Virus record (IMG/VR): IMGVR_UViG_3300013901_000007 | Location: 32,001-96,000 of that record | Strand: one strand, 5' to 3' | DNA length: 64,000 bases | DNA from: a virus | Lineage: Duplodnaviria; Caudoviricetes | Shown: positions 4,335-61,000 of the stretch, piece after piece | How positions within the stretch are numbered: position 1 is the stretch's first letter | Layout: the number at the start of each line of letters is the position of its first letter | The notes under the pieces: generated by a model | The model's database searches: none | What the model saw: only the letters and a program-made list of their open reading frames with translations | What the model was told of the DNA's origin: nothing | Made by a program: the position numbers and the translations under genes

Positions 4335-5591
4335 TTAATTAATAAATGGTAAGTTCGTTAAGTTGCTTAATGAAACACTCATAGTGCCTCCATAATCTAA
4401 CCCACACGATATGCTTTGAATTAAAAAGCGTTGATTTACCATGTCGAAGAAAGCATTATTAATAGCAATTAAACTATTAACTGTAAGTAAGGGGTTAAAA
4501 GCGATATTTAAGCTTGTGGAACTTTTGAGAATTAACTGCTTACGCAACTCATATTTAGCACGTTCTTCGGCTAAATAATTTGATGTAATATTACTATCAT
4601 TAATAATACTACCTGTACGATAACCAATACGTTGACAACACAAAGGGGAAGCTGGATCATCGTTTACAGCAACCGCTTTAAATACTCCATTAGACTCATT
4701 AGAAGTTCCTGTGACTATAATACGATTTATAATTGATGTCATATCGAAATCAAAAGATAATTGTTCATAATCTCCATCAACTCCAGTAACTGTAGTTAAT
4801 AAAGGTTTATCCTGATCAGTGGTTGTCTCACTAGTAGGAACTAAGGTTAAAATGCCCTGACTATTATAAAAAATTTCTGCAGATAATTGAGTAGCAAGTT
4901 CAATTAAAATGCTACCAAAAGTTTCTCCAGCACTTTTTGAAATACTTGCCTGGGTCCTTTTGTCTTTAAAAGAAGAATGATAAATAATCCTTTTACTATC
5001 GAGAGGATATCCATTACCCATGTCGTAATGGATAATTCCTTCTATAGCACTTTGTATTAAAGTTCCCACAGGAATTTCATAAGTCAATTCGAGAGTACCT
5101 GTCTTGTTTTCAAATAAAGCAAATTTATCACTTGCTTCAATAGAAACGGTTTCCTCTCCTTGAGATTGAGACACTGATGCTTTAGCAACAATAAAAACAC
5201 CTTTTTGTACCCAAATTGTTGTACCATCTAATGTTTCGATACCAAGATCAAGTCTTAAACGAGTTCCTGCCCAAAAGATATTAATATTAGGAGTGTATTT
5301 ACCTTCTCCATTATAAAGTTGAAAACTCAACGAACGACGTTGACCATCTTGATAGTTTTCAGAATAATTTCCCCCTGCAACAATATCTGCAAGGGGAATT
5401 TCAAAATTAATAGTTTCGTCTGGATATAATACATAAATTTTATAACGAGGAGTATTAACAGAAGAATCAATGACTTGCATTAAATCTGTAATAGTATACT
5501 TATCGTTCAAATTTGAATCTTGTCCATAAGAAACGCTGTTTATAGATAAAGCGAGAACATCACCATTGGTTAATTGATAAGTAGATTTCAT
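4335..5591 (-). CDS. baseplate hub / tail tip protein
   Basis: RRSLSFQL, GVFIV, IEASDKF, FYNSQGIL, NRIIVTG, AEERAKYEL pattern typical of hub proteins; position after tape measure. Confidence 0.7.
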   Translation of the reverse strand: MKSTYQLTNGDVLALSINSVSYGQDSNLNDKYTITDLMQVIDSSVNTPRYKIYVLYPDETINFEIPLADIVAGGNYSENYQDGQRRSLSFQLYNGEGKYTPNINIFWAGTRLRLDLGIETLDGTTIWVQKGVFIVAKASVSQSQGEETVSIEASDKFALFENKTGTLELTYEIPVGTLIQSAIEGIIHYDMGNGYPLDSKRIIYHSSFKDKRTQASISKSAGETFGSILIELATQLSAEIFYNSQGILTLVPTSETTTDQDKPLLTTVTGVDGDYEQLSFDFDMTSIINRIIVTGTSNESNGVFKAVAVNDDPASPLCCQRIGYRTGSIINDSNITSNYLAEERAKYELRKQLILKSSTSLNIAFNPLLTVNSLIAINNAFFDMVNQRFLIQSISCGLDYGGTMSVSLSNLTNLPFIN

Positions 5592-30685: not shown

Positions 30686-32344
30686 TTAAATATTAATAGT
30701 GGAACTACCACAATCTAATATTAGGGTATCATCTTCAGTTAATACTTTATTTGATAAACTAATAGTTCTTGTTCCACTACTTGTAATAGCTGCATCATTA
30801 TCAACTGTTACATAATCTGAACCTTTAATAGCAACAGATGTAACTGTACCCGTTTTATCAACACCACTATGTGTTTTAATTTGAGCTTCTGCTAATTCTT
30901 TAATTTCTTCATCAGTTCTTTGAACATTTGTATCAGTCCAAGGGACATTAACTGCTAACTTACCGTTTTTATCAAGTTCAACTGCGTATAATTTACCACC
31001 GATAGCGGAAGCGTTTTTAGTATAACTATTTAAATTCGCTTTAAGTGAACCAGTTGATGTAACGCTACCAGTTAAGCCATCAGCACCAGTAACAGAAGTG
31101 ACAGTACCAGTTTTGTTTAAACCAGGGAAAGCTGTTTCATTAACTCCAACATCTGCAGCACCTAAATTAATATCTGCTGATAATATTTTATTATTTATTT
31201 TTCTTGATATTGGAACATATCCACTTAAATCAATATCTGTGTTACCAATACGTTCCCATTTATATGTCTTAGTAGTTGTGCCTTCTTCAAGTGTTATAAA
31301 TTCATCATAACTATCTGGTTGTCCATCATTAGGATTATGACTATGGGCTTTTAAGTAAATTTTACCCATTGTCGAAACAGAAGCGGTAGGTAACTCGGAA
31401 ACAACTTCATATTTAAATTGTTTTATACCACCAATAGCTCCATCTACATAGCTTTTAACAGCACCTGATGTAATATAGTTTCCTGAGGAAGCTGTAACTG
31501 ATGTATCTAATGCTTTATTTTCAACATTTCCCAATCCAACGTCAGCTTTTCCAAGACTTCCTTTATAAGCTAAAGCACCTAATCCTTTAACAGCAACATC
31601 ACTTCCATCAACAGCAATTGTACCATTTGTAGTACCCGTCGCAACTGATTGAACTGCTGAATCAGCTTTGGTGCCTTGAGCAGCTGTTGCGTAAGCATCT
31701 GAATTAGTATAAGCAGCACTACCTAACCCATGAATTTTAACCGATGCTACAGAACCTCCTTTTGGAGTTACAGAAAAAGTACCATTTGTTGTTCCTTCAG
31801 TAAATGTATAAGTTGTATCATTATCTGGAAGTGTAAAAGTTTGATCGGTTACATCAACCCATTCATCTGCTCCTTTTTCTTTACTTTGAAGTTTTAATGA
31901 ATGATCAGTAAGAACTAATTGATATAATGTGTTTGTATCAGTAGTATCTTTTATATTAATTGTTGATTCCCCTGATTGGTTAACTGTAAAAGAACCTATT
32001 TCTTTTCCATTTTGAGTAATAGTAATTTTACCATTACCTACAGTTGGAATAGTTGGTGTTCCACTAATTTCATCATATGTATAAGATGGTTTATTTGCAG
32101 CTTTAGCCCACGAATAAACATCAGCAGCTAATCCCGAACCCCATTTAAGATCACCAAAAGTAGAAGTTCCATCACCGACTTTAAATAAAATGGATGGAGC
32201 GTTGTGGATAGGATCTGTGTTATCAGCTACCTCAACAAAACAAACTTCGCCTTTTAATGGTATAAAAGTAGCAGCTATTTTATTCCAATTGGCCAAAGTA
32301 TCATATTTTAATTTTAAACGTGTATTAATTGTTTTTTGTGTCAT
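30686..32344 (-). CDS. tail fibre protein
   Basis: FIPLKGEV...FKVGDG N-terminus; GLGSAAY, DVGLGNVEN, ELPTAS...YDEF...WERIG, AVNVPWTDTN fibre motifs. Confidence 0.85.
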   Translation of the reverse strand: MTQKTINTRLKLKYDTLANWNKIAATFIPLKGEVCFVEVADNTDPIHNAPSILFKVGDGTSTFGDLKWGSGLAADVYSWAKAANKPSYTYDEISGTPTIPTVGNGKITITQNGKEIGSFTVNQSGESTINIKDTTDTNTLYQLVLTDHSLKLQSKEKGADEWVDVTDQTFTLPDNDTTYTFTEGTTNGTFSVTPKGGSVASVKIHGLGSAAYTNSDAYATAAQGTKADSAVQSVATGTTNGTIAVDGSDVAVKGLGALAYKGSLGKADVGLGNVENKALDTSVTASSGNYITSGAVKSYVDGAIGGIKQFKYEVVSELPTASVSTMGKIYLKAHSHNPNDGQPDSYDEFITLEEGTTTKTYKWERIGNTDIDLSGYVPISRKINNKILSADINLGAADVGVNETAFPGLNKTGTVTSVTGADGLTGSVTSTGSLKANLNSYTKNASAIGGKLYAVELDKNGKLAVNVPWTDTNVQRTDEEIKELAEAQIKTHSGVDKTGTVTSVAIKGSDYVTVDNDAAITSSGTRTISLSNKVLTEDDTLILDCGSSTINI

Positions 32345-36598: not shown

Positions 36599-37123
36599 TT
36601 ATAAAATATATTTTTTTAAATTAGAAATTGGTTTATCTCTAAATCTGTATGTAATATCAATTAATTTATTTGCTTCTCGTTTGTAAATTTTTTGATTAGA
36701 ATTAGGAAAATTAATAGGACCACATGTTTGTTTAAGCCATGTGTCTTCTTCACCTTTAGGTAAAATAAATCGTCCATATTTGTAATAATCTACAACTCCC
36801 GCTAAATCTAAATTAATAAAATCTCTACCGCTGTAAAATCCTACTTTTAATTTATATTTAGTATGAATTAAATCTACTAAAGACTTTAATGTTTCATAGT
36901 CGGAATCTCCCCCCATAAAGCCAATTAATGTAAGACCGTAGTTTTTATAAGGAAGGAGGACGGAATCAAGAAAAGATTCGGTAACTTCTTTTCCCCTGTT
37001 TTCTTTTAGATAACTCTCAGAACATCCTTCGCAAAGACAAGGACAATTACTAATATTAAAACACAATGCAATTTCATCTGGAAATTCCACAAATGTGATT
37101 GCATAATCATATGTTTTAATCAT
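36599..37123 (-). CDS. nrdG: anaerobic ribonucleotide reductase activating enzyme
   Basis: EFPDEIAL.FNISNCPCLCEGC, FMGGD, YYKYGRF, SNQKIY motifs; adjacent to nrdD. Confidence 0.9.
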   Translation of the reverse strand: MIKTYDYAITFVEFPDEIALCFNISNCPCLCEGCSESYLKENRGKEVTESFLDSVLLPYKNYGLTLIGFMGGDSDYETLKSLVDLIHTKYKLKVGFYSGRDFINLDLAGVVDYYKYGRFILPKGEEDTWLKQTCGPINFPNSNQKIYKREANKLIDITYRFRDKPISNLKKYIL

Positions 37124-37896
37124 GTCTTTCGTGAGTATAAGCTCTATGAGCTGCTTCTTCTTGTCTAGGTTGAGAGAAATTACTCACTAATTTTAAATAT
37201 CCAATAACACGAGTAGCATAATCTACGTTTTTACTATGACACTCAGGACATTCGTCTAAATATCTCTTATCTATGTGTCCACAATCGTTACACACTGTAT
37301 TAGGAATGTTATAAGTAAAATAAGAACATCCTAGTCTTGCAGCTGTATCTAATAATTTTCGATATTGTTCTTTTGATAAATAGGAGTCGAGATTTCCATG
37401 AAGAGCGCTACCTCCATCGAGACAACCAATAAAATCTTGTCCTTGTAATTGCATTTTAGTAATAATGTCATAACGTCCATCTTCTACTGGATAAAAATAT
37501 GAATTATATAGATTTCTTTTAGGATTAACTACATATCCTGCTTCTTTATCCCATTTATATAATTTTGCACCTGCGTTTTCTGCCATTTTGTTACTACTCT
37601 ATATAACAGAGCGGAATTACTACTTCCTTGGAGTGTCTTTACACTCGAGTAATTCTCATTGGTTTCACTTGGTTATAGCCAATGTTCAGACTGTTGCATC
37701 CATTTCTGGTTCTCTCATTCAGTCGTTGTAGGTGTCTTATGACTTCCTAGGCATTGCCCACTTCTGGGTTTTTGCCGTATATTAGAGAGAATTTAACGTC
37801 CCCATAGAATTAAAGGCTAGGGACAAATTCTGTATTAAATTTAGTCAAATGAGATTGCTTCACTTGCACTTTTGCATTTTTTAATTGTAATATCAT
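37116..37896 (-). CDS. nrdD: NrdD C-terminal half, join(37896..37819,37583..37116), predicted 181 aa
   Basis: ATG 37896 with AGGAG RBS gives MILQLKNAKVQVKQSHLTKFNTEFVP, spliced to AENAG...; contains CxxC/CxxC and the glycyl-radical motif RVIGY. Confidence 0.85.
37584..37818 (-). ncRNA. group I intron (235 nt, no ORF) in nrdD
   Basis: P1 GUCCCU/GGGGAC with U.G at the splice site; P3 UUCUCUC/GAGAGAA; P7 GACUG/CAGUC; terminal G; splicing restores FVP-AEN. Confidence 0.9.
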
Positions 37897-38900
37897 TCCT
37901 TATATCTCCTTTGTATATCGTTTTTAAAATCTTCATATTGTTGTAAATTATATATCATAACATAATTTAAATTTTGCTTTTTAGCAGTGTTTCGCTTTTG
38001 AACATCCAACTGCGTCCACACCTTAATAGCATTACGATAAAAAGTAAAAGTTTGAGCTTTTTGTTGCCACACCTTTAGTTTTTCCACATCCTGTGGATTG
38101 GTCGCATCAAATGGATGTTTACCATGTGTAAAAAATAAATTTAATTCAACATATTGATCCAAAGGACGAATGTAAAAATCACAATGTAAGGGTAAGCTGC
38201 TGTCTTGTGTTGACAACAAACATTATCGTCACCAAACATTTTTTTAAAAAAATTGTTCCAAATCTTGTTCAGGTTTAGAAATATTAGTGGTACCATTTTT
38301 TAATTTTGTTTGAAATGCTTTTTCTGAATTTGTTTTAAAATCATATTTGGCTTTTACTTCTGGACGCATCATTTGATAAGGAACGCCATATCTCTCTATA
38401 TTGGTTTGTCTCACTTTTTCTTTAATTTCTTTAGTTTGAGCACCAGATTTTGCACCATAGCGTTGCAAATTAGTTTGTTCTCTCTTCTTTATTACCCACT
38501 CCAATTTGTTGGGATTGGACACCCTAAATTTAGCTAAATACGCCTCTCTAACTTTTTGTACATCTTTAAAAATATTGTCTACCCCATATTTTTCTAGGTT
38601 AGTTTGTTTATATTTTTCAGGATTGTTATAATTAGGATCTCCATATTTTAATAAATTAGTTTTTCTATTATGTTCATAACTTAATAACTTGGGTTTTTTA
38701 ACACCATAATAGTGAAAAATTCTAGTTAAGGTAGCCTCGTTTATGCCAAAATGAGCCGAGGTTTCCACCTTACTATGATTTTCAATAATATAATATTGAA
38801 TAATTTCATCAATATTATATGAAACATCATGTAGAGAAAAATCTCGTCCATTATAAACGGTGGTTGTTCCATATTGGTTCGACACAATACTATACCTCAT
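37893..38900 (-). pseudogene. disrupted homing-endonuclease-like gene between the nrdD halves
   Basis: HTH plus (K/R)QTN..KYG repeats, SKPE, CDFYI...YVELN...THG nuclease motif; broken near 38185-38250 by compensating +1/-1 frameshifts. Confidence 0.8.
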
Positions 38901-38904
38901 ATTA

Positions 38905-40476
38905 CTATTTATCAATTTGGAAAGGTTTTAATAGTTGCTCGTCAATAACTAAATTTTCCACTTCGTTTATAATGTCCTCTATTTTTTTATTGCAAGAATC
39001 TCCATTAAGATTACACACTTTTAATACCGTTCCTTGTGGAATTTCATATGACGTATCTCCAAAACTTAATTGATATAATTTATGTGCTTTAGTTCTGTCT
39101 TTTGTGTTGATTTGCTTAATAGTTTCAAGAATGTCTTGTGCATATAATTTATATTCTTCATTATTAGGATTAATTTTGATATTTTTATATTTACTGTCTT
39201 TATTCATTAAAAATTCAGCACCTTCTATAAAACCGTTTACACCAACTGTAAGATACTGTTTATCCAAATCAATAAAACCAGCTTTATAAACTGTTAATAA
39301 ATTACTATCATATAAATCCCATAACCAGTTATTCCAAGCGATAAGATACTTGTGAATTCTTTCAACAATAGTAGTAATGTATTCTTTTAAAGAACAAACA
39401 TCTCTTTGTTTATACCAATCTTGGACTATTCTGTTTAAATTTAAAGTGATAACTTTTTTACTTCCAGTTTGAACACCGCCAGCTCCCAAAGTGTAGCTAA
39501 ATACATTTTCTTCAATGGCATTTTTTAAACGACAACAACTCGAAAGGGCGTCGGCACTATCTGAATTATAACAGAAGAATGAATGACCTTCTGCCCACAT
39601 TTCTGCTACAAAAGAGGCACTTTCTTCATCAATATATTGTTTAGTATTTTTATCATATAATAAATTAAAAGTTTCAACTGGGAAAGTAAGAATGACTTTT
39701 GTTCTTTCTTGATTTAACCATTTCATAAACATTTTTTGAAGTTCTTTTGTGGTTTCCCACTTAGGTTCATCCATATCTGGAAACACAAAATCTTTAAAGA
39801 GAGAATCAAAAAAACCTTTGTCATAGTATGCACAGTTTAGGAAGGGTGATTGATAATTTCTACTTCCTGCTGGCTGATTAATTGAATAAACAAATTGTTG
39901 AAACCAGTCTGTAATCCTATCTCTTAAGGTTTCTTGTCTTTTGCCATAAATAACTACTTTTTCATCAAGATGTTGAATATAATCATCGCCAAAATCTACT
40001 CTTAAAAAATGGTCAAAATAAGTAAAAAACTCAGGTAAAGCAATAGCTCCTAAATATTGACCAGCTAATAAAAAGACTAAATTAATAGCTCCCCCAATAA
40101 AAGAATCTGTATGTTTTGGAGGTAAGGAGCTGCCACCCAAGTCTTTTAAACCATTTAATAAAAATGGGTACATAGAGACGGCTACGCAATAAGGAGCCAA
40201 CCCTGTTTCATCATGTGAATAAATAATATGATTATCTAAATCTTGAATATATTGTTTAGCTAATTCATCACCAAAATCTTTAGCTAAATACTTATTCATG
40301 ATAGCGCGATTAATTTTAATCATGTCATCTTTTATAATTTCGCTTTGTAAAGTAGCAATGTTTTTTGCAGTAACATTTGCATTAGCATCGTAAGCTGAAC
40401 CAGAAGCGGCATTTTTAGCTTTTTTATAATTTTCGATAAAATTTAATTTTTTATCAATCCATGAAATATTTGCCAT
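38905..40476 (-). CDS. nrdD: NrdD N-terminal half (class III ribonucleotide reductase) with a ~58-aa extra C-terminal tail
   Basis: IYSHDE, PYCVA, QQFVYSINQP, TFPVET, SSCCRL, TLNLNR, YLTVGVNG; ends before FNTEFVP. Confidence 0.92.
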   Translation of the reverse strand: MANISWIDKKLNFIENYKKAKNAASGSAYDANANVTAKNIATLQSEIIKDDMIKINRAIMNKYLAKDFGDELAKQYIQDLDNHIIYSHDETGLAPYCVAVSMYPFLLNGLKDLGGSSLPPKHTDSFIGGAINLVFLLAGQYLGAIALPEFFTYFDHFLRVDFGDDYIQHLDEKVVIYGKRQETLRDRITDWFQQFVYSINQPAGSRNYQSPFLNCAYYDKGFFDSLFKDFVFPDMDEPKWETTKELQKMFMKWLNQERTKVILTFPVETFNLLYDKNTKQYIDEESASFVAEMWAEGHSFFCYNSDSADALSSCCRLKNAIEENVFSYTLGAGGVQTGSKKVITLNLNRIVQDWYKQRDVCSLKEYITTIVERIHKYLIAWNNWLWDLYDSNLLTVYKAGFIDLDKQYLTVGVNGFIEGAEFLMNKDSKYKNIKINPNNEEYKLYAQDILETIKQINTKDRTKAHKLYQLSFGDTSYEIPQGTVLKVCNLNGDSCNKKIEDIINEVENLVIDEQLLKPFQIDK

Positions 40477-40484
40477 AATTACTC

Positions 40485-40688
40485 CTATTGTTTATTAACC
40501 CACTGTAAAGCTTCTTTAAAATGTAAAATATTGCCATTTACTTCTAAAGCGGGCACAGATTGAATGCCTTTTTCTAACATTTCGTCGACATCATTCTTAA
40601 AAACATAGTCTATATTTTTTTCTTTAAGCTTTGTTTCCAAAACCCTACATCTTGGACAGCCTGTACTATATAAAATAATTGTATCCAT
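40485..40688 (-). CDS. glutaredoxin / NrdH-like redoxin
   Basis: LYSTGCPRC, SVPALEVNG; immediately upstream of nrdD. Confidence 0.88.
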   Translation of the reverse strand: MDTIILYSTGCPRCRVLETKLKEKNIDYVFKNDVDEMLEKGIQSVPALEVNGNILHFKEALQWVNKQ

Positions 40689-40753
40689 AAAAATGCTGGA
40701 ACCTCCTTTTCTGTAAATATTATAACAACTTTTTAATTTGTTGCAACTAATAT

Positions 40754-41434
40754 TCACTTATCTTCTTTCTGATTTTTTTCTAATCTTTTTGATGATTTCA
40801 ATTCTCGAACATTTTTATCTAATTCTGAATATAAAGTTTTATCTATTACTTCATCTGCGGTTGTTTCTTTAAATGCTTGCCATTCTGGAGAAGCAGCATT
40901 AGCGACACTCTTTAAATCAGCCAACATTTCTGGCGTTAACGAAGAAACAGTTTCGTTTAAAGAAGAAGCAAATTGTGCTAAACTTTCAGGAGTAAATAAT
41001 TCAGCTGTTTTTTCAATTCTATATACATTAGCGAAATTGTAAACTCTATCAACTAATCTTTGTAAACGCTTAAAATCTTTTTCACAGAACTTTAATAAAT
41101 ATTCATCAAATCCATATTCACATAATGTATTATAAATTAAATCTAATGATTGAAAATTATTCATATCATTTTCAAGATTGATAGCATAAGTCAATAAACC
41201 ATAAAGTAATTCGTTAATTTCTAAATTAATTCCAGATTGAATAGCATCTTTATTATCATCCCAAATATTTATACAAATTTGTGTAACAGCAATCATTTTT
41301 CTAGTTAAATTTAAATAAGAAACAATTTGTAATTTTCCAATTAAATCTTGAACTTTTGCATCATTTTTTTCTGTAGGATCATGTTTGAAAGCTAAAATAG
41401 CCTTTAACAAATCAGATAATTTTATATTTTCCAT
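40754..41434 (-). CDS. hypothetical helical protein
   Basis: 226-aa ORF overlapping the end of the recombinase gene. Confidence 0.6.
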   Translation of the reverse strand: MENIKLSDLLKAILAFKHDPTEKNDAKVQDLIGKLQIVSYLNLTRKMIAVTQICINIWDDNKDAIQSGINLEINELLYGLLTYAINLENDMNNFQSLDLIYNTLCEYGFDEYLLKFCEKDFKRLQRLVDRVYNFANVYRIEKTAELFTPESLAQFASSLNETVSSLTPEMLADLKSVANAASPEWQAFKETTADEVIDKTLYSELDKNVRELKSSKRLEKNQKEDK

Positions 41435-49978: not shown

Positions 49979-51661
49979 TCATCTAATTGAATAATTAAAT
50001 GTAATTTCATATTTTTTAGAACCAGCACCCCAGACCACTCCAGAAGCTAATTCTTTCAATTCTTTATATCTCGAAGGATTACGAGGAACTCCTTTTCCTT
50101 CAATAATCCAAGTTTTATTAGGACCCGTCATGCCAATATATGTCATCCCCAAAGCCTCATATGAAGCTCCATTAAATTTATTAAAATCACAATAACTAAA
50201 CACTTTTTCAGGTTGATAATCCTTTACAAAATGTTTAAATAATTTTGAAACACCCCCAACAACAATATTGTTGGAACCTGGACACCCTCTAATAATTTCC
50301 CATTCATTATCAGATTTTAAATTGCGGTTATATTTAGTTTTACTAAAAGACATTAATTGAACCAATTCATCTTTATAATAAAGGCCGTAAGTCACTTGAG
50401 CATTACGATGACCTTGTAAATGAATTTTATCATTCAAAACTTTTGCTTCTTTGTTAGTAATTTTTTTAATGGTGCATTGACGAGCATAAATTTTGCGTTC
50501 AACATTACCCGTAGCAATACGCAACAAGGCAATAATTTTTTCTTTTTTTATTGGGTCATTCCATTCATATTCATAAATGTGAATAATACGAATACCTTTA
50601 GACTCTGCTAACAAACTTTTGTTCAAGTGATAATTTTTAGGTAAACGAGCTTCGCTATGCCAAAAATCTCCGTTGAATTCTATTCCTAATTTTAATTCAG
50701 GACAATAAACATCAATTTCTTTTCCATCTAATGTAGTGCGATTATGCAATTCCACCGTTATATTCCAATTTTTTAATAAATTAAAAATTTCTAACTCACC
50801 TTGTGATGAATTAGGATTAAATAAATCTTCTAAATTAAATGAATGCACAATTTTTCCTATAATGGTCGGACCAATTTGTAATTTAGTTGCTACTTGAGCA
50901 AAACTAGGTTTATCATCAAAATTATTTTTTATATATTCTATAAATTTATCTTTATTTGAAATAATTTCATATACTTTTAATCCATAGTGAGCTTGAGCCG
51001 CCACAGGAACACCATATTTTTTTAAATTATTCTCTTTTACTTTTAGTTTAATTTTCTCACTACTCATAACACTTTCTACCCCATAACGAAGTAAATTTGT
51101 TTGTTTCATTTTTTCCATAATAATAGGTAATTGAGTGACATAACCAACACCGTATTTTAACATATTAGTATGAGTTCTATCTTGACAAACTTGTTCTTTA
51201 GATTTACTCATATTATATTGTTTAATTTGTTTATTAATAGTCGGGGCGCTTAATTTAAAATGCTTAGCACATTCACTCATACTATGTTGCTCTACTACAT
51301 AATATTGATATAATTCATCATAGGGAATTAATGGCGCTGTAATTTGATCAAAAATTTTTTTACGCACTGCAGGATCTGACATACTGGAGTTTCCTCCATA
51401 TTTTTCTAAACATGTTTGTTTGCGTTTTTCTTTTATAGAATCAACATGTGATAAAACAGAAGTGCCATATTTATCTACACAGGTTTTATCTCTACAAGCA
51501 CGTTGTAGTTCAATAGATTTGGTAATATCTGATTCCTTTAACCAGCGGACCAATACTTCTTTACAAACATTATAGTGTTGACACAAAGCCATTTGAGATA
51601 AATTTTGCTTAATATATAAATCATATAATTCATCTTTTGAAGGCGATATTTTTTTCTTCAT
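49979..51661 (-). CDS. free-standing homing-endonuclease-like protein (Hef-like)
   Basis: HTH plus KQT.L.KYG repeats, EIDVY...GIEFNGDFWHS nuclease motif, C-terminal GGVSKLFKHF...SYCD domain; paralogue of 58874-60622. Confidence 0.8.
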   Translation of the reverse strand: MKKKISPSKDELYDLYIKQNLSQMALCQHYNVCKEVLVRWLKESDITKSIELQRACRDKTCVDKYGTSVLSHVDSIKEKRKQTCLEKYGGNSSMSDPAVRKKIFDQITAPLIPYDELYQYYVVEQHSMSECAKHFKLSAPTINKQIKQYNMSKSKEQVCQDRTHTNMLKYGVGYVTQLPIIMEKMKQTNLLRYGVESVMSSEKIKLKVKENNLKKYGVPVAAQAHYGLKVYEIISNKDKFIEYIKNNFDDKPSFAQVATKLQIGPTIIGKIVHSFNLEDLFNPNSSQGELEIFNLLKNWNITVELHNRTTLDGKEIDVYCPELKLGIEFNGDFWHSEARLPKNYHLNKSLLAESKGIRIIHIYEYEWNDPIKKEKIIALLRIATGNVERKIYARQCTIKKITNKEAKVLNDKIHLQGHRNAQVTYGLYYKDELVQLMSFSKTKYNRNLKSDNEWEIIRGCPGSNNIVVGGVSKLFKHFVKDYQPEKVFSYCDFNKFNGASYEALGMTYIGMTGPNKTWIIEGKGVPRNPSRYKELKELASGVVWGAGSKKYEITFNYSIR

Positions 51662-58037: not shown

Positions 58038-61000
58038 CTAAAGGTTAATAACACCGTATTTACTACCACAGACAGCTGAGACACCAAATCTGTATTCAAC
58101 AGAAATTCCATATCTCTTGTCTGATGTATGTTCTGGATCGAAATTGACTGCAACTTCGTTTCCTTCGAATACGATTTTAACTGGTCTGTCACCTGCGACT
58201 GGAACTAAATAAATTTTCTTATTGTCAAGAGCTAATTTAACATCACCGTTGACTGTTCCTGGAATTACAGGATTATTTAAAGCCATTAAAGGTACGCCTA
58301 AATATTGGTCTAAATAACCAACTTTATTCATTTCTTCGCCAATTTCAACTTGATAGTTTCCTTGTAAAGAAAGGTTGCTTAAAGCAACTGCTGTGCCAAT
58401 AGCAATAACTCCCATACCACCATTTGCTGCAGAGACTTTTTCTCTTAAGTCACCAAATAATTCTGGAGTGACACCGTTTGCCGAATAAGCGTTGCCAAAT
58501 TCTGTGACAGCTTTTGCCATTCCTTTAATTGCACTTGTGAAAATGAATGCTCTATATGATAAAGCAATCTTTAATCCAAAGTTACCAATATCAAAAATTT
58601 TAGAAATAAAAGGATACCAGTCAACATGTGCGTCAATGGTATATGCATGAGCATTAACAGTAATTTCGTTGTCAAACATTGGTTGATCAACACCTTTTCT
58701 AACGCCTTCTGCCTTTTGGTTAACTCTGAAAAGTTCGTTTGATTCAATAATGAATCTAGCTGTATCACCGTAGCCCACTTGTTTGACTTCAGCGATAAAT
58801 CTTGTAAAAGTCTGAATTAAATATTAATTAAATTGATCCTTATATATATTAGGTCTTATATAGTTATAAGACCTTATTGAACTGTATATAACCATGTCTT
58901 TGTACCGCAATCACAAAGACGATGATATCCTAAAGAATGCATTCTTTCAACCTCACCCGACTCTTGTTCTTGATAACGAGTTCTAATGTCTGTGGTTTGA
59001 AAATTAATCCAAACATAATTAGGTTGATTAATTGAAACGCATTGAAAACCCAAAATTCGATATAAATCTCCTTTTGTTTTTGTTATATCATTATATGAAG
59101 AAATAGTATTACCAGGTTGTAAAGTTTCTACAAAATGTTTAAATAATTTTGAAGCACCACCTTGTACCACACACCCATGTTGATTACAAAATCTAGACAA
59201 TTCCCACGTATATTTCTTATTCTTTGGATGTATGAAAGTCATACAACTAACAATTTGACCTTGATATTCTAATCCATATTGAATTGTAGAATGGTCATTG
59301 CCTTGAATATGATTTTCATTAAGAAATTTCTTTTTTTGCGCCTTGGTAAGTGTCACAATTTTACATTTTCTAGCTGGAATCTTAATATTATTTTTTATCA
59401 ATAAAGTTTTTATTCTATTCTTAATGCTTGTTTGAACAATATTATTATTCCATTCATATTCAAATATATGAAATAAGAATACACCTTTAGATTCTGCTAA
59501 TAACGATTTGTTTTGATGTGTCAAACTACGACCATTGTGATCTTGATATTCTTTTTTTATATCACTATGCCAATAGTCCCCATTAAACTCGATACCTAGT
59601 TTATAGTCTGGTAAATAAATGTCAATTTCCTTACCATTTAATATGGTTCTATCGTTAGTTTGAATATTTTCAACACCACATTCTTTAAGAAAATTAATAA
59701 TATCATTTTCATAATGAGAACGCAATGAATGGAAATTTATAAAGTCGTCTAAATTCCAACTATGTATTTTATCATACACCACAGTTCTATCTCTAAGATT
59801 AAAGAATTCTTGTAGATCATAGACTGTAGGTTTAGAATATAATGAAGATAAATACTTGGTAAATAATTCTTTATTATTCCAAATATTTAAATGTTTTATA
59901 TCTTGTTGCATATGATTGGGAGCACCATATTTATTTAAATTAGTTTGTAGAGTCTTTTGTTTATATTCTTCTGTTTGGGAATAATTTTCCACATCATATT
60001 TATTCAGCATGGTTTGTTTTACTTTATCCTTTATATCTTGGTGCTGCATTGAATTAGAAACACCATATTTATCTAAACAAGTTTGCACACTTTTTGCTTT
60101 AACCTCTTCTAACTCTAATGTGGATTTAACTCCATATTTTTTAAATGTATTATCTCTGATAATTTCATAACGTTGTTGAGAATTTTTAGCAATGTGATAA
60201 TGTTTATTTATTTTATTTAATAAAGGATATGTAATATTTAATAATTTACACATTTCTTCAACAGATAAATTTTTATTAAGATATTGTTCTTTCAACCAAG
60301 CAACAGTATAATTTTCTCCATATACTGAAAAAGTAGTCTCATCTACAATGTGAATAGGACTTAAACTTGCAGTTTTGGTAGATGCACCATATTTTATTAT
60401 ATTGGTATTTTTAACACGTTCTCTTAATTCTTCTGAATTTTGAGCCCTAGAATAGACTTTACTTTTATCTTCCTTAGATCTCTTAATGCCATAAGACTTT
60501 AAATAACGATTAAATGTGGTTTTTGAAATATTAAAATGTTCTTCACACTCTTTAACAGTATGAAGTTCATTAATGTAATATTCAATAATATCTTCTTTTG
60601 CGATGTTTATTCTTTTACTCATCTTTTTCCTCCTATAATGCCTTCATACTTTGTGTTAAATTTATTATAAAAAAGAAATATGAAAAAGTAAAGTATTTTT
60701 AATATATATAAAGATCAATTTTTTGTTTAATTAATATTTAATATAATTCATATGAGTTCGTTATTCTCATACAGTTTTTTAATAAACTTCTTATACTTTC
60801 ATATAAGCATAGACTATATTATATCCTTTCGTATTATTACGTTAAGGCCCGTCTCTTTCGAGGCACTTACCTCTACTCCCCTCATGAGGGATAGTCGTTG
60901 AACCTTCTCTTTCGAGCTTGGCTGCTGATTCTCTATTTTGCAAGATAGTGTTTAGGATTTAACCATGCACCATTCATATAATTTTTTCTACTTTCGTAAC

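Follow-up and report, generated by a model that had tools for sequence, protein, structure and literature searches.

The interrupted nrdD gene

The window analysed here is the whole of a 64,000-nt stretch of DNA (positions 32,001 to 96,000 of the IMG/VR virus record IMGVR_UViG_3300013901_000007) from a 107.5-kb uncultivated phage of the gut. It contains a class III ribonucleotide reductase gene, nrdD, whose coding sequence is interrupted by an endonuclease gene and, shortly downstream, by a group I intron. All elements of the locus are on the minus strand, in the order thioredoxin-like gene, open reading frame (ORF) of 523 aa, two endonuclease ORFs, 28-codon ORF, structured gap, 156-codon ORF, and nrdG.

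The 523-aa ORF, nrdD-a (40476–38905), consists of 465 native residues (39082–40476) followed in frame by a tail of 58 codons (38905–39081), which is acidic (charge −4.2) and ends at a TAG stop followed by TAA. The native part includes the finger-loop cysteines (SSCCRL) and aligns with positions 6–409 of the Pfam NRDD profile (PF13597) and with residues 50–481 of 4COI. Homology to the Pfam profile and to the NrdD of T. maritima stops at about residue 465 (...DRTKAH), and the tail is absent from intact alleles, as an earlier note on this DNA had recognised when it described a 58-aa extension unlike NrdD at this point. Native sequence picks up again in a mini-exon of 26 codons (37896–37819), which has an 18-codon leader (37843–37896) and an 8-codon native core, KFNTEFVP (37819–37842), the same ending as in intact homologues. 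Beyond a 235-nt intron (37584–37818), it goes on at AENAG (37583) in the last exon (37116–37583; 155 aa plus stop), which carries the zinc-site cysteines (CxxC...CxxC) and the glycyl-radical motif RVIGY and aligns with positions 415–560 of the NRDD profile and residues 521–637 of 4COI.

The mini-exon bridges the gap between the two profile matches, and with the pieces joined the class III NrdD profile extends over their full length. The T. maritima NrdD aligns with residues 24–457 of the long ORF and 25–145 of the last one, and nrdD-a is 59–68% identical to intact phage NrdDs. Twelve intact phage homologues read without interruption through ...RTx-(3–8 aa)-FNTE-VP-AEN..., so no NrdD residue is missing from the pieces. 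The motif positions bear out the proposal that the SCCRL cysteines are on one chain (a) and the zinc site and glycyl-radical RVIGY on the other (b).

An assembly error at the junctions, raised in the earlier note as a possible objection, is not the cause of the split arrangement. At least 23 contigs, which come from many samples and were built by different assemblers, have the exact nrdD-a of the window; they share the identical broken endonuclease gene, coverage reaches ~420x, and contigs from the runs of two other studies span the junctions with the same architecture at 93–97% identity. A megablast search of GenBank phages gave no match to the locus; the nearest NrdD relatives in GenBank are from crAss-like phages (at most 52% identity).

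The downstream half has its own translation signals. A ribosome-binding site (AGGAG, 37906–37910) lies within the 3’ end of the endonuclease gene, 9 nt upstream of the ATG at 37896, and this ATG overlaps the endonuclease TGA stop (ATGA), exactly as had been noted before. In the window, AGGAG is present ahead of 26 of the 47 large ORFs, compared with a background of 1.3%. The start of the last exon has no Shine-Dalgarno site, which is expected if splicing joins this exon to the mini-exon. No terminator-like site was found on this strand from the thioredoxin/glutaredoxin-like gene (grx) to nrdG, and promoter and terminator predictions were not above chance. These signals suggest that the halves are translated separately, as chains of 523 and 181 aa. 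Among the public runs listed as carrying the locus, none is an RNA run.

The endonuclease cassette and the group I intron

The endonuclease gene (37893–38885) has a GTG start at 38885 behind GAGGT and belongs to DUF7487 by Pfam and to the PHROG families 3339 and 12131, both annotated as ‘homing endonuclease’. It has 342 relatives, with 5–8 copies in Lak phages. Compared with intact alleles of 330 aa, the window copy has an extra T in a T-run (~38246–38252) and lacks one base at 38187, which leaves a stretch of 60 nt out of frame between two endonuclease ORFs in the same frame. The earlier note was right to call this a broken gene, though not in its frame call, as the two ORFs share one frame. 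An intact 330-aa allele (P0014) is found in L027–L029 and in run X7, while the copy in a further related locus, L023, is broken at a different position. The endonuclease has decayed independently in these two lineages, the window and L023, and the nrdD pieces are unbroken in every allele.

Comparison with alleles that lack the endonuclease shows where the insert begins and ends. Among the proteins that cluster with nrdD-a at 90% are members of 479 aa and 482 aa; on their contigs, exon 1 and the mini-exon are contiguous and are followed by the same intron. These cassette-free alleles, more than 90% identical to the window, read straight across as ...DRTK-(5–8 aa)-T-KFNTEFVP and then the intron. 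At the DNA level, the cassette (~1.2 kb) lies between ...ACT AAA and (AAA) GTG CAA, at ~39087–37870, with an ambiguity of a few bases due to microhomology. By these limits, the tail and the first 7–9 codons of the leader arrived with the cassette, and the last ~10 residues of the leader are homologous to the native loop of the endonuclease-free alleles. The 18-aa extension previously attributed to the downstream half is therefore foreign in its first part and native in its last. The cassette is present in the window, L023 and L027–L034 and absent from L024–L026, at one precise site in genomes that are nearly identical in other respects.

The loop at the insertion site (37843–37872 and 39082–39090 in the window) is hypervariable, with at least four variants of 5–8 residues among L024–L026 and alleles P0004–P0010, although the endonuclease-free alleles are more than 93% identical elsewhere. 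Such variability may be the result of escape from cleavage, or the loss of cassettes may have left scars.

DUF7487 endonuclease genes also commonly lie between nrdD and nrdG, as they do in five related loci (L078:3501–4490, L081:2213–3202, L077:3755–5182, L079:2777–4066 and L080:4844–6388). In L077, L079 and L080 they are second copies, in addition to one within the gene. By analogy, this suggests where the in-gene copy came from. The endonuclease had no match beyond DUF7487 among solved structures and Pfam nuclease families, and when its C-terminal domain was compared by sequence with the Vsr-like/EDxHD family there was no Pfam or PDB sequence match. Elsewhere in the window there are two large minus-strand ORFs with DUF7487 repeats (49979–51661 and 58874–60622; 560 and 582 aa), one of them with a helix-turn-helix (HTH); these are probably further free-standing endonucleases of this genome.

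The 235-nt sequence at 37584–37818 is a genuine group I intron, located between VP and AE of the NrdD sequence, and its splicing would join KFNTEFVP to AENAG, as first proposed from the window’s letters. The last 6 nt of the mini-exon (GUCCCU) pair as P1 with the intron guide GGGGAC, placing a U.G pair at the 5’ splice site, which follows a U; the intron ends in ...AAAUG, so its last base is G. A homologous intron of 230 nt is found at the same VP/AE site in L014, where P1 is GUGCCU/GGGCAC, a compensatory change. The window intron folds far better than shuffled sequences (z = −3.41). Its match to Rfam RF00028 is partial (P3–P6 and the R element), with 10.7 bits against a gathering score of 50. 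A search with the core pattern found 41 related IMG/VR loci (L035–L075). This family is missed by RF00028 at the gathering score, the two gathering-level matches on their contigs being other introns, and RF00028 therefore appears to be insensitive to this subgroup. In an RNAalifold analysis of 22 of the IMG/VR sequences, 25 of the 32 predicted pairs were compensatory (P3, P4, P5, P6, P8 and P9), and P7 (GACU-N / N-AGUC) covaries as well (A/U, G/C, U/A), judged by eye. The U.G pair in P1, the covarying P3–P9, the terminal G and the location in a conserved nrdD motif are all as in known group I introns of phage nrd genes (e.g. T4 nrdD/sunY and nrdB); unlike those, this intron has no ORF and belongs to a family below the RF00028 gathering score.

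L035–L075 make up a widespread family of phage group I introns with the shared core AACGACUNAAUGA...GAUGNNANAGUCUGAAC. An intron is found at the same nrdD site in L014, L040, L041 and L068, and is absent from L011 and most relatives. It occurs without the endonuclease in L014 and L024–L026, and all five lineages with an in-gene endonuclease also have the intron.

Conservation of the split arrangement

Five diverged lineages have nrdD split at the same site, with identities of 48–94% for the endonuclease and 65–98% for NrdD-a. Four of these are lineages beyond that of the window (L076, L077, L079 and L080), with endonuclease relatives of 48–67% identity at the same position in nrdD. In all five, an acidic tail of 55–58 aa follows the native sequence. 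Tail identity falls to 21–37% across lineages, but a pattern of hydrophobic residues and turns persists, and Y12, L20, D47 and L51 do not vary. Wherever the contig covers them, the split lineages retain the finger-loop cysteines, the zinc site and the glycyl-radical motif. The leader is exactly 18 aa long in seven alleles of the five lineages, always followed by the strand [KHR][FY]NTE, and the mini-exon core KFNTEFVP is 100% conserved in six alleles. An equivalent ribosome-binding site is retained in L023, L027, L076, L077, L079 and L080. Neither extension, tail or leader, is found in the 12 intact homologues.

The tail has a dN/dS of 0.14–0.27 in the three closer alleles, with an excess of synonymous changes in three pairs (P = 3e-4, 9e-4 and 0.05), and the chance of 58 open codons at its base composition is ~0.005. 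By its dN/dS, the tail is under purifying selection. The corresponding values are 0.02–0.08 for the NrdD exons and 0.05 for NrdD-a, the exon value being blurred by the mosaic history of the locus described below.

In a tree of exon 1, a supported clade unites the window with L023, L027 and L076; L077 falls outside it, among intact genes. The divergence of the endonuclease roughly parallels that of NrdD, which points to an old association. Allele comparisons thus show the split to be ancient and to be kept while the endonuclease decays, as far as this can be read from sequence. L079 translates correctly only if TGA is read as tryptophan, so the split arrangement crosses a genetic-code boundary.

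The reading that we favour, and consider probable, is a working two-chain NrdD of the type known from NrdA of phage Aeh1, made by insertion of a DUF7487 cassette. The cassette, a free-standing one, would have entered nrdD at a surface loop that lies between ...RTK and the KFNTEFVP strand. From it come the 58-aa extension and the stop of the upstream half, and also the ribosome-binding site, the ATG and the initial residues of the 18-aa leader of the downstream half, which still has an older group I intron, without an ORF, 78 nt farther along. From a single operon transcript (grx, nrdD-a, endonuclease, nrdD-b, nrdG), the 235-nt intron alone would be spliced out. Two chains would result – NrdD-a (523 aa), with the thiyl-radical cysteines, and NrdD-b (181 aa), with a barrel strand, the zinc site and the glycyl radical – and would assemble non-covalently into an active class III reductase, activated by NrdG. 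The acidic tail domain and the beta-strand-like leader may help the halves to find or hold each other, or to form the dimer, as do the tails of Aeh1 NrdA-a and NrdA-b; the tail may come from the N-fragment of a split intein without its splicing chemistry. Non-covalent assembly with retained activity is proposed here by analogy with Aeh1, and so is the docking role for tail and leader.

The Aeh1 precedent, cited in the earlier note, is an apt one. In this ‘genes in pieces’ reductase (Friedrich 2007; Crona 2011, PMC3045599), the nrdA gene is split by MobE, and the tails that arrived with the insertion are essential for activity (PMC3045599). The tails were proposed there as a general antidote to gene fragmentation. 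The two systems are alike in several respects. In each, the gene of a free-standing homing endonuclease interrupts the catalytic subunit of a phage reductase within its 10-stranded barrel, the active-site residues come to lie on two chains, and the endonuclease gene overlaps the start of the downstream half. Relatives of mobE lie between nrdA and nrdB in T-even phages, just as DUF7487 relatives lie between nrdD and nrdG (L078, L081). They differ in that the enzyme here is a class III glycyl-radical enzyme rather than class Ia, the endonuclease is of the DUF7487 rather than the HNH (MobE) type, and the 58-aa tail is acidic and predicted to be folded, whereas the Aeh1 tail is basic. The downstream half of NrdD also needs removal of a group I intron. 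The Aeh1 arrangement comes from one phage and the present one from five diverged lineages; on the other hand, the activity of the Aeh1 enzyme has been shown, while the split NrdD is known as sequence. To our knowledge, Aeh1 NrdA is the only reductase known to work when cut by an endonuclease without splicing.

Several observations weigh against a working enzyme. In the region 39006–37116 of the window (from the middle of the tail through the endonuclease and intron to the last exon), L023 is 96–97% identical to the window, while the flanking nrdD-a and nrdG sequences are only 77–83% identical. This mosaic block is the footprint of a recent co-conversion of endonuclease, intron and exon. In a mosaic locus, low dN/dS in the exons does not cleanly prove that the split form has been under selection, and much of the exon divergence between lineages could be older than the cassette’s arrival. 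Some alleles within the split clade have no endonuclease, from which it follows that gain and loss of the cassette are ongoing, and the split state may be the less fit one. The host probably has an NrdD of its own, so the phage could tolerate a dead nrdD for some time.

Collaborative homing of an ORF-less intron with a neighbouring free-standing endonuclease has reportedly been seen in psbA of cyanophage S-PM2. The present locus is similar in that the endonuclease gene is 78 nt from an ORF-less intron and that endonuclease, intron and exon 3 have moved into L023 as a block. It differs in that the endonuclease is inside a coding sequence and the intron also occurs without it.

An explanation in which the gene is dead – the insertion inactivated nrdD, homing of the cassette keeps bringing in fresh flanking exons, and the phage uses the host reductase – would accommodate both the mosaic movement, between diverged strains, of a block that runs from the endonuclease to exon 3 and the nesting of endonuclease-free alleles among split ones, and nrdD is an accessory gene in phages. 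It is nevertheless unlikely. In five lineages, with NrdD-a identities down to 65%, all pieces are open and have their catalytic motifs, although the endonuclease has decayed twice. The tail and the 18-aa leader have conserved lengths and the ribosome-binding site is retained; neither the intron core nor P1 has been disrupted, and the dN/dS of the tail is low even though its sequence is not NrdD.

If a two-chain enzyme is indeed made, the antidote idea extends to a glycyl-radical enzyme, which is sensitive to oxygen. One chain would hold the thiyl-radical cysteines and the other the glycyl radical, with radical transfer across a non-covalent interface, and the split would be an evolutionarily stable solution, found in five lineages rather than as a one-off. 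The locus looks like a second natural case, judging from its genes, of an essential enzyme that works in pieces and is rejoined by neither RNA nor protein splicing. One survey of reductases in phages describes nrdD genes split by introns or inteins, as well as an unexplained fragmented nrdD in phiAS4 (PMC3653736); no report of an intein-free, endonuclease-split NrdD was found in the literature. The locus also provides a natural allele series (empty, intact and decayed endonuclease) for study of the endonuclease life cycle beside an ORF-less intron.

The tail and other explanations of the split

AlphaFold2 models of the tail alone have a pLDDT of 87 for the window sequence and 83 for that of L077, which is 21% identical to it. 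The predicted elements are beta-beta-beta-beta-alpha-beta-alpha, and the tail is predicted to be an autonomous small beta-rich domain. The models were compared exhaustively with 48,161 PDB representatives. For the window tail, inteins were the best matches, and 18 of the 50 top rows were intein or Hedgehog structures (PI-PfuI, Prp8, Npu DnaE, the PolII mini-intein, KlbA, NrdJ-1, gp41-1 and the Hedgehog domain), all with Z no higher than 4.5. Inteins were again best for the L077 tail, with 10 of 32 top rows and Z no higher than 4.5, and both models fall on the same region of the intein, e.g. residues 53/54–97 of Npu DnaE. The recurrent resemblance to the intein (HINT) fold is weak. A Foldseek search of the tail model against PDB and viral models gave nothing at E up to 0.001.

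At the level of sequence, searches of 1.84 billion representatives, PDB and Pfam, and of IMG/VR by pattern and by profile, found no relatives of the tail. Its sole other protein cluster is that of L023, and the L077 tail gave no match in a region search. As the tail has no detectable relatives outside these loci, its role is drawn from conservation and analogy alone, a further point against the docking proposal. Another origin was tried and rejected. A MAFFT alignment hinted that the tail could be a decayed duplicate of the downstream exon and the leader a duplicate of the upstream exon, but an HMM of ten intact NrdDs matched neither the tail nor the first part of the leader; the last ~10 residues of the leader are native loop. 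In a protein atlas the tail came closest to small NRDD fragments (score 0.90, 126 shared features), below the level that separates kin from chance and so no more than a lead.

Split-intein halves first meet through an anionic region of the N-fragment and a cationic C-fragment (PMC11766414). The tails are anionic in all split lineages. The charge of the leader is +2.6 in the window but about 0 in L076 and L077, and is thus not conserved, which weakens a simple electrostatic docking of the halves; complementarity of tail and leader holds in the lineage of the window, fails in L076/L077, and was rejected as a general feature.

Tails of the Aeh1 kind have been suggested to descend from split inteins by Crona and colleagues (PMC3045599), and the resemblance described above would be a first structural hint, if a weak one, in that direction. 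That the tail and leader are the remnant of an ancestral split intein, which has kept the fragment-docking part of the HINT fold and lost the splicing chemistry, is a tentative idea that the models make conceivable and that we regard as doubtful. If it were true, the locus would be a natural intermediate between trans-splicing and purely non-covalent assembly, and the 58-aa and 18-aa pieces would form a compact natural two-piece docking tag. Whatever its origin, the pair is a small candidate for protein docking.

A related but distinct explanation is that a split intein, greatly reduced to the tail and leader, is still active and ligates NrdD-a to NrdD-b. The order of parts matches exactly that of the known fractured genes, in which the N-part with an intein N-fragment is followed by an endonuclease and then by the intein C-fragment with the C-part (PMC2677866). 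Inteins were the best structural match of two independent tail models, over the same region, and the tail is anionic as N-inteins are (PMC11766414). Several features argue against protein trans-splicing, which we consider quite improbable. The two extensions (58 + 18 aa) are far below the size of a HINT domain, an intein needing ~130 aa, and every structural Z is under 5. In seven alleles, neither junction has conserved splicing residues (Cys/Ser at position 1, TxxH, a terminal His-Asn, or Cys/Ser/Thr at +1): the tail does not begin with a conserved Cys, Ser or Thr, the leader does not end in a conserved His-Asn/Gln, and no nucleophile is conserved at +1. Neither Pfam nor PDB gave an intein match to the tail sequence at E up to 10. 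The absence of intein motifs reported earlier is thus correct for the sequence, although the predicted fold of the tail matches part of the HINT fold.

The fractured genes resemble this locus in gene order, in the overlap of endonuclease and downstream gene (common among them, PMC2677866), and in affecting a DNA-metabolism enzyme of phages. They differ in that there are no functional intein halves here, NrdD is not among their eight enzyme types (PMC2677866), and the endonuclease is not placed by sequence in their Vsr-like family. An intein-free case is also on record, an SbcD-like gene split by an endonuclease with 25-aa and 9-aa extras (Dassa 2009, PMC2677866).

Removal of the whole 1.2-kb insert from the RNA, as an unrecognised self-splicing or host-processed intron with an endonuclease ORF, would yield a single NrdD and dispense with two chains. 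Endonuclease-bearing group I introns are common in phage nrd genes (PMC3653736), there is a U before a possible 5’ site (CAU/) and there are G residues before in-frame points in the leader, and the Rfam gathering score misses the genuine short intron of this phage too. A search for Rfam group I introns over the whole region nevertheless found nothing in the insert, nor did a search of its ends alone at E up to 10, although the short intron was partly matched with identical settings. The insert has no core motifs and not even a partial Rfam match. The first 200 nt of the insert fold like shuffled sequences (z = −0.84, compared with −3.41 for the intron), with no excess folding energy, and its base composition is that of coding DNA. 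The endonuclease ORF extends to the ATG of the mini-exon, with ~50 nt of insert after the ORF, so that a 3’ core would not fit. As an in-frame sequence, the tail is selected as protein, the ribosome-binding site and ATG at the start of the downstream half are conserved, and exact colinear junctions would not follow a G. Removal at the RNA level is accordingly very improbable; judged by its sequence, the long insert is a free-standing endonuclease cassette and no intron.

The least probable explanation, to which we give hardly any weight, is that the chains do separate jobs, NrdD-b (a small separate chain with the whole glycyl-radical and zinc module) serving as a spare part when the NrdD of host or phage is damaged by oxygen and NrdD-a being a remnant or having another role, since NrdD-a is conserved as strongly as NrdD-b (dN/dS 0.05) and keeps its active-site cysteines, and NrdD-b has a barrel strand and is therefore more than a free-standing radical domain. 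The model for such a division is GrcA/YfiD, a spare radical-domain protein for pyruvate formate-lyase. That system resembles the two-chain NrdD in being a glycyl-radical enzyme that works with its radical domain on another chain; GrcA substitutes for repair, is not an obligatory half, and does not originate from a mobile element.

The genes on either side of nrdD are kept throughout. Upstream, it adjoins the thioredoxin/glutaredoxin-like gene (40485–40757, minus strand; Pfam Thioredoxin_3/Glutaredoxin), which encodes 66–67 aa on related contigs and has the same position in all related loci. Downstream, nrdG (36599–37123, minus strand) encodes the radical SAM activase (Pfam Fer4_12), overlaps the nrdD stop and is a conserved neighbour in all loci. 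Shine-Dalgarno sites are heavily used in the window at ~30% G+C, which suggests a host other than typical Bacteroidota.

The nrdD genes of this phage group have other interruptions. In L014 (4930–5957), and at the same place in L011, there is a LAGLIDADG-type intein in the finger loop (SSC C/...HN/C RLK); it is in frame within an ORF of 820 aa, at the thiyl-radical cysteine. L076 has an additional gap of ~290 nt (4985–5290) between LDG and GSALH, and in L080 (1301–2700) a GIY-YIG endonuclease ORF separates the first 413 aa of nrdD from its ...NGFIEGAEF piece. With these, there are at least five distinct insertion sites in nrdD within the group.

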